Positions 180-8,013 of a DNA stretch of 8,776 nucleotides are shown here, piece after piece. The notes beneath the pieces are model-generated. The model saw only the letters and a program-made list of their open reading frames with translations, searched no databases and was not told the DNA's origin. The DNA is from Octopus sinensis (Eukaryota): NCBI RefSeq assembly GCF_006345805.1, contig NW_021828334.1, positions 1 to 8,776 on the forward strand, in the 5' to 3' direction. How positions within the stretch are numbered: the first letter of the stretch is position 1; each line of letters starts with the position of its first letter. A program made the translations under genes and the position numbers.

Positions 180-385
180 TAGTGAGAATTTACAAAAAAA
201 AAAAAAAAAGACGAAGACGGGTATGTAAACAACAGATGTCTGTAAACAACAGATGTAAACGCTCGGGAAACGAAAAAGTCTTTTACGTTTCGAGCCTACG
301 CTCTTCAACAGAAGGAACAGAAATAGACCGGGAGAGAAAATAATAAAAAAAGATGTTCTGTGGCTAGCGATCTATCATGGCGAAC
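180..385 (-). mobile_element. Penelope-like element terminal-repeat fragment with degenerate hammerhead-like motif (family P1)
   Basis: Minus strand 315->280 reads CCUU-CUGUUGA-A-GAGC-GUAG-GCUC-GAAA-CG-UA-AAAG. It is homologous to 6675-6850 (aatttac...agacgaa.ac.gg...aacaaca...cgctc.ggaa...aaaagt...acgtttcg.gcc.acgctcttc.acagaa) and is flanked by TA tracts. Confidence 0.65.
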
Positions 386-1737: not shown

Positions 1738-2559
1738 GGTTGGCATCCTTTCTGTCTCGGGAGACAATGGAGTTGCGCATAAAGTAGTCTAGTCCGGCTT
1801 TTATATTCCATGTCCTGATACATTTCCTGCTGTGGCTGTGTAGTCCTATCCTGGACAAACACTCCCTCTGGCAGGTACCGCAAATGTAGCGAAGACTGTC
1901 CCTGGCTGGTTGTAATGCCATAGTCGCTTGTTGACGTCTCTTCTTTTCTTTCCATTTCTCCTCTCTCTCTCTGTCACTCCTTTGTATTCCCTCTTTTACG
2001 GTACGTCGCCATTCTCCACGGTTGCCGGCAACTGCCTCCCAACCGCTAATATTGATGTTGCAGGCCTTCATGTCCCTTTTGCAAGCATCCTTGTAACGTA
2101 AGATCGGTCTACCCACAGACCTAGTACTCCTAGCAAGCTCTCCGTAGAATATGTCCTTGGGGATTCTGCCATCATTCATACGGCTAACATGCCCAAGCCA
2201 TCTCATACGTCTTTGTGTGAGGAGTGCAAACATGCTTGGTATTCCTGCTTGCCTGAGGACATCTTTGTTGGGGATATGATTCTGCCATTTGATGCGGAGG
2301 ATTTTTCGGAGGCAGCGCAGGTGAAAGATGTTTAGGCGACGCTCTTGGCGTGTGTATAGCGTCCAGGTCTCACTTCCATACAGTAGAGTGCTGAGTACAC
2401 ATGCCTGGTAGATCTTCATTTTCGTGGTCTTGGTCAGCTTATTGTTGTCCCAAGCCCGTTTGGAGAGTTGGGCCATCGCAGCAGCTGCCTTGCCAATGCA
2501 TATATTGAGCTCAGCGTCAAGGGATAGGTTGTAGGTGACGGTAGAGCCCAGATAGGTAA

Positions 2560-2560
<1 letters not shown>
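1738..2560 (-). pseudogene. Truncated reverse transcriptase ORF C-terminus (lacks the APE endonuclease and RT catalytic core)
   Basis: Open frame without stops across the element. The Met at 2476 is internal, and the extension to 1562 is read-through into microsatellite. Confidence 0.85.

Positions 2561-2563: not shown

Positions 2564-2595
<32 letters not shown>
2564..2595. repeat. (TA)n microsatellite
   Basis: Direct reading. Confidence 0.95.
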
Positions 2596-2596
<1 letters not shown>

Positions 2597-2765
2597 TTTA
2601 TTTAAAAGCAGCAGAAATCTAACAAAAGCTGTTACTCAGAGTTTCACGTTCCCGTTCGTCGGACAGTTTTGTTAACAGCTTTTCTTATATTTCTGATGCT
2701 TTTAAATAAAGCATTTTACTCTACCTCTTTTTTCCACCTTGTTTCACATTTATGTGCTTACACGG
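2596..2765. mobile_element. Short Penelope-derived fold-back element (family P3) with 39-bp inverted repeat
   Basis: 2596-2634 versus 2673-2711 pair at 36/39. AATAAA is present in both arms, a hammerhead motif lies in the spacer, and (TA)n flanks both sides. Confidence 0.75.
2622..2672 (-). ncRNA. Minimal type-I hammerhead ribozyme (U4C core variant), predicted
   Basis: Minus strand: ACAAAACUGU-CCGACGA-ACG-GGAA-CGU-GAA-ACUC-U-GAGU-A/ACAGCUUUUGU. Stem I has 10 bp with a one-C bulge, stem II has 3 bp with a GNRA loop, and stem III is palindromic. The GUA cleavage triplet predicts a cut between 2633 and 2632. Confidence 0.75.
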
Positions 2766-2865
2766 TATATATATATACATATATATGTAGATAGATAGAT
2801 AGATAGATAGATAGAGAGAGTCAGAGAGAGAGAGACAAAATGAGAGAGAAAAAAAGAGAGAGAAA
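2766..2865. repeat. Compound (TA)n-(GATA)n-(GA)n microsatellite
   Basis: Direct reading. Confidence 0.9.
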
Positions 2866-3988: not shown

Positions 3989-4164
3989 GCTTTTAGCGCC
4001 TTCTTAAGCTAATGAGGGGAGCATCTGCAATGGAGGTACACAATCATAGGCAAACTGCGGTCTGTGTGACTTTCTGAATTACTTTGAAGAATTTTAGTAG
4101 TGCGGTGCACCTGATGATGAGCCAGGCCTCATGAAGTCCTCATTTCGAAAAAAAAAAGGTTGCC

Positions 4165-4329: not shown

Positions 4330-4895
4330 CACGGATGTCATTTATAGAACCTAATGGAATGATTCGTTTAATCCTGGTCCCAGATTAACTGCGAGTGTCT
4401 TTAGCAGAATCCATTCGGATACGAGCCTTAATTCAGCATCTGAGTTAAGCCTTCTACCCCGCCACCACCACCACTCTCCCATCTGAACCTCGAGTAACTT
4501 CAACAGAACCCTTTATGGGACTAGCCTTAATTCACTACCCGGATTAAGTTCACCTTCTGTCTGGCCGTCGAGTGTCTAACAATCTATTCGGGATCTAGCC
4601 TTAATTTTGCATCTTGATTAACTTCACCTTCCAAATGATCTGCGAGAGTCTAGCAGAATCCATTAAGTTCTTAGCTTTAATCTCGCACACGGATTTGATC
4701 CACGAGAATTTTAAAAGATCCGTTGGAATAATAGACTTATTCCAGTACCCGGATTAACTCCATCTTCCATCTGACCCTCGAATGTCTTTAGAGAATCTAT
4801 TATGATGCTAACCTTGATCCAACATCTGGATTTTATCCTCGAGTGTCTAACAAATCTATTCATGATAGACATAATCCAGCACCCAGCTCAACACC
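4330..4895. repeat. Degenerate minisatellite, about 8 units of 60-99 bp
   Basis: Recurring cgagtgtct..a.cagaatccatt....ga.ctagccttaat.cagca.c.ggattaact. The cga anchors lie at 4392, 4491, 4569, 4643, 4703, 4779 and 4840. Confidence 0.85.
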
Positions 4896-5058
4896 ACCCT
4901 CTTGCCCAAGGGTTGGGTTATCTTTGACAGAATTCCCTTTTAAAAGTATTTGAGCTTACCCTATAGTTTCAGTATAATGCAATTCATAGAATTGTAGTAT
5001 AGGTGTTAGTGATGTAGTAATGGATGTGACCATGATAGTGGTAGTATAACTGGTAACT

Positions 5059-5377
5059 GGCATTCCGTCGATTATGACGATCAGTGTTCCAGTTAATCCG
5101 ATCAACAGAGCATCCTGCTCGTAAAAATCCCCGTGGAAGTGGCTGAGTACTCCACAGAGACGCGTACCCTTAATTTAGTTACCAGGAAGTTCAGCGTGAC
5201 ACAGAATGGGGCAAGGCTGGTCCTTTGAAATACAAGTACTACTCATTTTTGCCAGCAGAGTGGACTGGAGCGACGTGAAATAAAGTGTCTTGCTGAAGAA
5301 CACAACGCGTCGCCTGGAATCGAATTCACAACCTTACGATCGTGGGCCGACTACCCAATCCACTAAGCCACGAGCCT
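5059..5377 (-). mobile_element. tRNA-derived SINE family B, full length
   Basis: Colinear with 6201-6522. Minus strand has A box tggcttagtgg, B box gaattcgattcc, then gcgttgtgttcttcagcaagacactttatttcac. The tail is cgtcataatcgacggaatgcc followed by a ccagtta repeat. Confidence 0.9.
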
Positions 5378-6191: not shown

Positions 6192-6200
6192 CACATAGGA

Positions 6201-6522
6201 GCACTCCGTCGGTTACGACGGTGAGGGTCCCAGCTGATACGATCAACGGAACAGCTTGCTCGCGAAATTAACGTGCAAGTGGCTGAGCACTCCACAGACA
6301 CGTGTGCCCTCAACGTAGTTCGTAAGGAGATTCAGCGTGACACAGAGTGTTACAAGTATGGCCCTTTTGAAATACAGGTACTACTCATTTTTGCCAGCTG
6401 AGTGGACTGGAGCAATATGAAATGAAGTGTCTTGCTCAAGGACACAACGCGTCGCCGGGAATCGAACTCACAAACTTACGATCAAGAGCTGAATGCCCTA
6501 ACCACTAAGCCAAGCGCCCTCA
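6201..6522 (-). mobile_element. tRNA-derived SINE family B, full length
   Basis: Colinear with 5059-5377. A box tggcttagtggtt and B box gagttcgattcc are on the minus strand. The tail is cgtcgtaaccgacggagtgc. Confidence 0.9.
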
Positions 6523-6674: not shown

Positions 6675-6850
6675 TATATAAAGCAAATTTACTGAAAACG
6701 AAAGACGAAAACAGGCGAGGGAACAACAAGCAGGTATATTTGGCGCTCAGGAAGAATGGAAAAGTTGCTGACGTTTCGTGCCAACGCTCTTCGACAGAAA
6801 GGGTTGCGAGGGGGAAAAAATGGAGAGAACGAAAAAAAACGGAGGGAGAA
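6675..6850 (-). mobile_element. Penelope-like terminal-repeat fragment (family P1, second copy)
   Basis: Minus strand 6801->6766 reads CUUU-CUGUCGA-A-GAGC-GUUG-GCAC-GAAA-CG-UC-AGC. It is homologous to 180-385. Confidence 0.65.
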
Positions 6851-7789: not shown

Positions 7790-7861
<72 letters not shown>

Positions 7862-8013
7862 TACGACGGAATTCTTTCATTTTCCGTCTACCAAATCCAT
7901 TCACAAGGCTTTGGTCAGCCTGAGGCTATAGTAGAAGACACTTGTCCAACATGATACGCAGTGGGACTGAACCCGGAAACATGTGGATCGTAAGCAAGCT
8001 ACTTACCACACAG
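7545..8013 (-). mobile_element. SINE family A, near full length with internal (TA)n/(TG)n tract (about 7752-7862)
   Basis: The 5' half 7862-8013 matches 1-159 and 872-1030 (B box ggttcagtccc). The putative 3' half ends ggcggtgctccagcgtgaccacagtcaaatgactgaaac followed by taaaag repeats. Joining the two halves into one element is inferred from adjacency and recall of the family. Confidence 0.8.

Follow-up and report, generated by a model that had tools for sequence, protein, structure and literature searches.

The DNA analyzed here is a window of 8,776 nucleotides, the forward strand of contig NW_021828334.1 of Octopus sinensis, in which a short insertion between two (TA)n tracts carries a hammerhead motif on its minus strand (Table 1). 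The hammerhead-bearing arm of the insertion (2596..2675) starts about 3 nt inside the common 5' edge of its repeat family, and the two arms overlap by a 3-nt microhomology at 2673-2675. The tail of the window copy measures 54 nt because of a deletion of about 16 nt; in the intact copy L143 (133-203) it is 71 nt long. Site A (2596-2604, minus strand) includes AATAAA, a possible polyadenylation signal about 80 nt past the presumed start, and both priming sites show a likeness of 2-4 nt to TATA immediately beyond.

Table 1. Features of the insertion and of its hammerhead motif in the window
Feature	Position	Strand	Basis
Insertion, 170 bp: two inverted pseudo-LTR arms of a Hydra-clade Penelope-like element	2596..2765		
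Hammerhead-bearing arm, 3' end at first fixed end (site A, AAATAAAG)	2596..2675	-	
Inverted arm, 3' end at second fixed end (site B), other end at about the cut position	2673..2765	+	
Penelope 'tail' between sites A and B, 54 nt	2712..2765	+	
(TA)n target, left side	2564..2595		
(TA)n target, right side	2766..2786		
Stem I, 5' strand	2663..2674	-	sequence
Core C3-A9 = CCGACGA, U4C	2656..2662	-	
Stem II ACG-GGAA-CGU: A10.1-U11.1 and two C-G/G-C pairs, GNRA tetraloop	2646..2655	-	
GAAA (2645-2642) and palindromic stem III ACUC-U-GAGU (2642-2634)	2634..2645	-	
Predicted cut 2633^2632, after GUA; A17 = 2633	2632..2633	-	hammerhead numbering on sequence
Stem I, 3' strand with one bulged C	2620..2632	-	

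The motif at 2620-2674 is a genuine hammerhead-shaped sequence with one unusual core letter. It had been described from the letters alone in an earlier note, and the minus strand agrees with that description letter for letter, including the 2633^2632 cut and an element spanning 2596-2765. Of the features of type I hammerheads, CUGANGA and GAAA, A15.1-U16.1 and H17 are all present except for U4, which is C in the window. The three helices around the core can be paired, helix III between two copies only. The pair G10.1-C11.1 is replaced by A-U in the window and by A.G and A.A in younger subfamilies; in the Hydra rows of File S2 of PMC8557442 this pair is variable, often U-U, U-C or G-U, and G10.1-C11.1 is therefore not required in the Hydra clade. 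The earlier note had suggested a scan with type I descriptors tolerant of core variants, and a relaxed descriptor allowing U4C gave a single site in the window and none in any of 500 dinucleotide shuffles. An Rfam scan of the window returned no hammerhead at E values up to 10, only simple-repeat noise.

Of the three helices, only stems I and II appear in the minimum-energy fold of 2622-2672. Since the loop of stem III is a single nucleotide, helix III cannot be closed in a monomer and can form only between two molecules, for which a duplex of about -7.9 kcal/mol is predicted. The claim that the strand folds into all three helices thus stands for the motif as drawn or as a dimer and falls for the monomer, while the idea that the palindromic stem III is suited to dimers agrees with both the loop and the predicted duplex. 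Positions 2673-2711 are an inverted copy of 2596-2634, and the predicted fold of the 112-nt context 2598-2709 is a long hairpin (-39.5 kcal/mol; 40 bp in the window copy) that captures the 3' strand of stem I. Because this strand is thereby removed from the ribozyme fold, the window copy is predicted to be inert. Cleavage by the motif in general is probably weak and dimer-dependent, and for the C4 form we put measurable cleavage, by a dimer or with the help of a protein, at about even odds.

Other copies, for which the earlier note had proposed to search the genome, were found in number. In the 2.72 Gb searched, the old-type 34-nt pattern has 623 exact matches, and the same pattern with six positions freed has 5387; the control gave 0 in both cases. 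The copies share a common plan consisting of a TA repeat, an arm, a junction, the other arm in inverted orientation and a second TA repeat, in which the junction varies between copies and the outer ends are fixed at two sites. Solo arms also occur. Anchors placed 3' of the cut gave 1443 old-type and 6749 younger-type matches, from which 192 arms were taken, at all 100 listed old places and, among 100 listed younger ones, at the first 30 and at 41 of the 52 remaining regions. Under a strict rule, site A is the end of 90 of these arms and site B of 66, so that 156 of the 192 stop at one of the two sites and then pass into TA repeats; most of those printed among the 36 unclassed arms are decayed versions of the same ends. 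Both sites are also seen as loose ends followed by TA in the contigs of four runs with four organism labels. The traits of EN+ Penelope-like elements (PLEs) are present, namely pseudo-LTRs in partial tandem, an inverted 5'-truncated copy and a tail at one end, and the inverted, tailed arrangement is known for such elements (PMC8557442).

Longer copies lead from the hammerhead through an AT-rich 3' UTR of 1.0-1.3 kb to an ORF for a reverse transcriptase with a C-terminal endonuclease (RT-EN). Long copies with the same U4C hammerhead as the window run on into this ORF, and in the old copies L126/L157, L158, L127, L130 and L131 RT-EN sequence lies 0.35-1.24 kb upstream of a GGAA-loop hammerhead. 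At 8 of 16 long loci two direct hammerheads surround the ORF, one with its core 209 nt before the ATG and the other about 1 kb after the stop, in a unit of about 3.35 kb. The tail between sites A and B, which lie 71 nt apart in L143, runs directly into the 5' UTR and ATG in L143, L145 and L152, and does so in inverted orientation in the old copy L157.

The Hydra clade is defined by RWK, DKT, CxCX5C and CxxC/CxH motifs (PMC8557442). An intact ORF of 709 aa in L140 contains RWK, DKT, YRDD, CxxC and CRH motifs. RWK lies near the N terminus (RLRWKAFFF in L140), DKG is modified to DKT (SDKTRN in L140), and the CxCX5C linker before the C-terminal endonuclease reads CNCNDGSCC in L123 and CNCKDGTSC in L100, with its second C replaced by F in L140. 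CxxC and CxH surround a conserved E and N (CKLC..EK..LN..CRH), and CCHH is absent, as judged by eye. The unit of about 3.35 kb, with its 1.0-1.3 kb 3' UTR, differs from Hydra elements, which are under 3 kb; since the source says 'generally', size is a tendency and not a defining trait (PMC8557442). A protein search gave 135 scored matches besides the query at 74-83% identity, many of them long open frames. The nearest database protein is 58% identical, and the others among the 120 matches listed are 41-48% identical. The family ORF and its fragments found no match in Pfam, P0001 giving one weak unrelated match, and a PDB sequence search returned nothing meaningful.

By its motifs, rather than by a tree with published Hydra sequences, the parent is placed as an autonomous Hydra-clade PLE, in agreement with the earlier assignment of the motif to the minimal type I hammerheads with a Penelope connection. 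The link to the ORF, the 3.35-kb units and the continuity from tail to 5' UTR indicate that the stub is the end of this autonomous element and not a separate mini-element. The proposal of a non-autonomous mini-element is not supported: the 170 bp are a 5'-truncated inverted end, junctions vary from copy to copy, and long copies reach the RT-EN ORF. As a candidate parent we rejected the decayed ORF with a Neptune-like cysteine motif that lies upstream on the hammerhead strand in L033: from about 350 nt upstream of the hammerhead, other long copies no longer resemble L033 and instead continue to the Hydra ORF. At the same place, L091:400-2200 (minus strand), a decayed RT-EN remnant with a CxxxxCxxC motif lies directly upstream of a truncated Hydra copy; we take this remnant to be Neptune-like.

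The 5' ends of the copies were compared with the predicted cut. Of the 192 arms, 10 start at the cut (-3..+2) and 31 in the 27 nt next to it (p = 0.31), and the subfamilies do not differ in this respect (5/103, 2/31 and 3/58). The RNA ends that the earlier note had proposed to look for at 2632 thus find no counterpart in the ends of genomic copies, used here as a proxy. A pile-up is seen further upstream: 82 of the 192 arms have their 5' end in the 16 nt at or inside a sharp edge, an initiator-like A that was chosen after viewing the histogram, compared with 11 in the 16 nt outside it. This A lies 46 nt (old) or 47 nt (younger subfamilies) upstream of the predicted cut. The lack of an excess at the cut together with the pile-up at the edge suggests that the template was likely uncleaved RNA. 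The inverted arm in the window itself ends within 2 nt of the predicted cut, where a cleaved template would give the same end.

Genome-wide counts in the younger subfamilies agree with this edge: the templated base before +1 is replaced by a purine in 296 arms, 531 carry a non-A base before +2, and 1339 extend at least 5 nt further. The base before +1 is G in 55 of the first 100 listed, and that before +2 is G in 8 of the first 100 listed. Thirty cases were inspected. Microhomology or mutation accounts for the 10 A cases; in the 20 G cases microhomology is absent unless the G is counted, the partner arm could have supplied the G in 18 of them, and in 2 neither side provides a template for it. 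The G before the edge suggests a copied cap, and the edge fits the initiator YYANWYY (consensus from PMC4581360). If RNA structure had made copying stall, the ends would be expected to lie 3' of stem I rather than 5' of it. Among the full-length copies with an upstream pseudo-LTR, eight of nine run past the edge for variable lengths and L179 alone starts there, so long copies need read-through or a circular template, unlike in a simple start-site model.

We consider it likely that the stub is a 5'-truncated inverted pseudo-LTR end in (TA)n, made by nicking of both strands and by two cDNAs that were primed internally on an uncleaved transcript, ran towards the 5' end of the RNA and were joined by microhomology. 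The transcript would start just 5' of the hammerhead, with the edge as its putative capped start, and the enzyme would nick both strands of a TA repeat and prime at sites A and B. Where the 5' repeat was used, both cDNAs would be short and, joined head to head, would give stubs like that of the window, whereas use of the downstream repeat would give long copies. Such priming resembles that of Poseidon of Anolis carolinensis (PAc; Frangieh et al., 2024; PMC11167929). In vitro, PAc is described to prime both strands from two internal start sites, which define its tail, and to use unprocessed RNA as template, and RNA ends at the cut are absent. The evidence for PAc comes from in vitro work and that for the octopus family from the ends of genomic copies; a further difference is that the PAc ORF starts inside the hammerhead and the ATG here lies downstream of the core. 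The family lends genomic support, from a second clade, to two-site priming of both strands on uncleaved RNA, and thousands of such stubs record how PLEs are likely copied.

The role of the hammerhead in endonuclease-bearing PLEs is described as an open question (PMC8557442). In this family the motif may be a slow ribozyme whose activity depends on dimerization or on help from a protein. Minimal PLE hammerheads show no activity as monomers and weak activity as dimers (PMC4209133), and the ribozyme of the anole element needs protein (PMC11167929). Any cut would strip the element RNA of its cap and its first 46-47 nt, a loss that points to translation control or RNA turnover rather than to insertion. 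The U4C change would then have weakened the ribozyme without stopping retrotransposition. The value of the family lies in its subfamily series and in the footprint of its copy ends, not in the window copy.

At position 4, the first 100 listed of the 5387 matches, counted by eye, have U in 60, C in 39 and G in 1; searches restricted to CUGANGA would miss about two fifths of the motifs among these 100. The subfamilies form a series. The old one, to which the window belongs, has CCGACGA, a GGAA loop and A-U at 10.1-11.1; intermediate ones have CCGACGA or CCGAUGA, a GCAA loop and A-U or A.G; young ones have CUGAUGA, a GCAA loop and A.A. ORF identity within the groups is 86% (6 old copies), 95% (4 intermediate) and 98% (14 young). 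The family offers a set of naturally occurring cores, spread over subfamilies of different ages, for direct comparison. The more diverged subfamilies at L036, L057, L042 and L054, which have other stem I and flanking letters, could extend the series and help to root it. A protein tree was built from 14 copies and 4 outgroups; 3 further outgroups, 9 young copies that are nearly identical and the copies lacking a called hammerhead were left out. Two starred branches place the 5 U4 copies within C4 lineages. Grouping the 9 other copies together was narrowly rejected (p-AU 0.043), for a group that was named with the tree in view and with long outgroup branches. The nesting suggests that U4C was probably fixed early and U4 later regained, and since both C-to-U steps are at CpG sites, reversal is easy. 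C4 makes up 15-39% of the summed contig depth in all four of four runs.

Old and young copies share 83% identity over the stretch between the edge and a point just beyond the cut, compared with 56-67% in four upstream windows (4 by 4 copies, L168 being dropped since its last motif lies on an inverted arm), which argues that the hammerhead stretch is under selection. The changes between subfamilies fall mostly at positions that are free in hammerheads, namely N7, the N of GNRA, the centre of stem III and the bulge of stem I. Covariation across copies, which the earlier note had proposed as a check, was not above shuffles: the helices of 55 copies, which show mostly neutral decay and in which stem III was fixed by the pattern used for their selection, contain 2 double-change pairs, below the shuffled mean of 3.1.

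The motif in the C4 lineages could instead be catalytically dead and retained as a signal in DNA or RNA, serving as an internal promoter or being bound by the enzyme, which we regard as doubtful. The same core change in a viroid hammerhead considerably lowers activity in vitro (Ambros and Flores, 1998, via PMC3088659), the Penelope element of D. virilis has an internal promoter (PMC2377424), and in the old subfamily CGACG at +18 and ACGT at +30 match 7 of the 8 specified Bridge letters and 5 of 6 DPE letters match at +28 (consensus from PMC4581360, by eye). However, the fit to Bridge and DPE is limited to the old subfamily, as the intermediate subfamilies retain C4 but sit one base off this register, and the MTE consensus is out of register in the family. 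Moreover, both strands of stem I and the palindrome of stem III are kept although a promoter does not need them, the youngest subfamily regained U4, and the U4C viroid hammerhead keeps enough activity to support infectivity and is viable in vivo (PMC3088659). The viroid motif has full tertiary contacts, whereas here U4C was fixed in a minimal motif through several successive retrotransposon subfamilies.

A variant of the promoter idea would have the hammerhead core double as an internal promoter at the 5' end of the capped transcript, with catalysis traded for transcription by U4C and the canonical core regained in the youngest burst. If this were so, the stubs would resemble strong-stop cDNAs, would locate the start site to the single base and would even include a copy of the cap, and the graded ribozyme cores within one lineage would allow one to ask what purpose Penelope hammerheads serve. 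Because the Bridge and DPE fit is lost in the intermediate C4 subfamilies, we rate it as quite unlikely.

According to a model proposed in PMC4209133, the hammerheads could cut in vivo at both pseudo-LTRs, and the resulting 3.35-kb circle, once ligated, would be copied by rolling reverse transcription into copies longer than one unit, in which the restored junction hides the cut. As a proposal about the working of the ribozyme, it is compatible with an origin of the stubs from two cDNAs. Internal priming speaks for it, and it would account for the full-length copies that overrun the unit boundary by variable lengths, but these are also explained by read-through of genomic tandems, and the sharp edge upstream of stem I is left unexplained. 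In addition, ribozyme mutants of the anole element inserted unchanged in vitro (PMC11167929), and U4C lineages spread through several subfamilies. We therefore consider cutting and circularization of this kind unlikely.

If the stubs came from a short non-autonomous RNA of their own, a mini-element or retrozyme with its start at the edge and mobilized in trans, this would explain why most of the sampled arms are short, why so many of them share one 5' edge and why full-length copies rarely start there. Against this, the junctions vary, arrays of short units were not seen in the loci inspected, the diagnostic letters of short copies track the ORF-bearing subfamilies, and the tail passes straight into the 5' UTR and ATG; such an RNA is accordingly an improbable source of the stubs. 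Non-LTR retrozymes (Cervera and de la Pena, 2020, PMC7229834; bioRxiv 10.64898/2026.07.22.740005) are similar in having a type I hammerhead, a short length and a relation to PLE pseudo-LTRs. They are head-to-tail arrays of ORF-less hammerhead units of 170-400 nt that are expressed as circles, while the window holds a single head-to-head stub of an ORF-bearing element whose tandem unit is 3.35 kb long and contains RT-EN.

A MITE-like DNA transposon carrying a hammerhead by chance can practically be dismissed in spite of the long inverted repeats and TA flanks, since the ends are asymmetric (they differ by the tail, where MITEs have symmetric terminal inverted repeats and a uniform length), the centre varies, solo arms occur, stems I and III are near-identical to those of published Hydra hammerheads, and continuity with the RT-EN ORF refutes it.

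The octopus family shares with the Hydra clade the RWK, DKT, CxCX5C, CxxC and CxH motifs, the C-terminal endonuclease and the (TA)n targets, and its tail of 71 nt is about twice the usual 30-40 nt of PLEs (PMC8557442). The hammerheads closest to that of the window are those of Hydra-2_aMil and Hydra-2_aJap (Craig et al., 2021, PMC8557442 File S2). As in other Hydra hammerheads, the motif lies near the 3' end and has a CUGU/ACAG stem I, an ACUC-N-GAGU-A stem III and a stem II with a tetraloop (PMC8557442). The Hydra rows of File S2 all have U4, but the descriptor behind them required it, whereas the older subfamilies here have U4C. Hydra-1_Obim is likewise an Octopus Hydra family with a (TA)n target and, by eye, similar RT motifs; it is 2507 bp long, and its description in PMC8557442 reports no pseudo-LTR. 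Its hammerhead differs in its core (CUGAAGAG), in a stem II of 7 bp and in a stem III of ACCA-A-UGGU.

U4C, an odd palindromic stem III and a weak 10.1-11.1 pair have each been described already, and CYGANGA is used as a published hammerhead descriptor (PMC13481778). The U4C and A-U variants pointed out in the earlier note are thus present but less surprising than had been thought. A search of the openly accessible literature found no description of the family or of U4C in PLEs. As the sole octopus Hydra hammerhead in File S2 of PMC8557442 is a different one, the family seems to be uncatalogued, as had been suspected, within the openly accessible literature and that file.

The window contains a number of other features. 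At 285-315 (minus strand), with a decayed copy near 6770-6800 (minus strand), lies a second, larger family with a minimal hammerhead-like motif, whose core CUGUNGA (A6U) is combined with an extra A, stem II GAGC-GUAG-GCUC and GAAACGU. It has 13,792 exact genomic matches (control, 0); U6 is found in 99 of the first 100 listed, and position 7 takes all four bases. This motif is possibly more unusual than the hammerhead at 2620-2674. A loose scan also picked up CUGAUGA...GAAA with a weak 3-bp stem II at 4111-4150 (plus strand), which a stricter descriptor missed. The 3' fragment of a LINE ORF, open for 258 codons, occupies 1787-2560 (minus strand), and its 5' break abuts the (TA)n of the stub. 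It found no match in Pfam, and from its motifs we take it to be RTE-like. Another short inverted-repeat insertion with TA-rich flanks, at 485-600, is perhaps a stub left by a third Penelope-like family. Two SINE-like repeat families have several copies with 82-86% similarity, at 1-154, 823-1020 and 7860-8013 and at 5100-5376 and 6200-6518, and 4400-4900 holds a degenerate tandem repeat whose period is about 74-99 nt.
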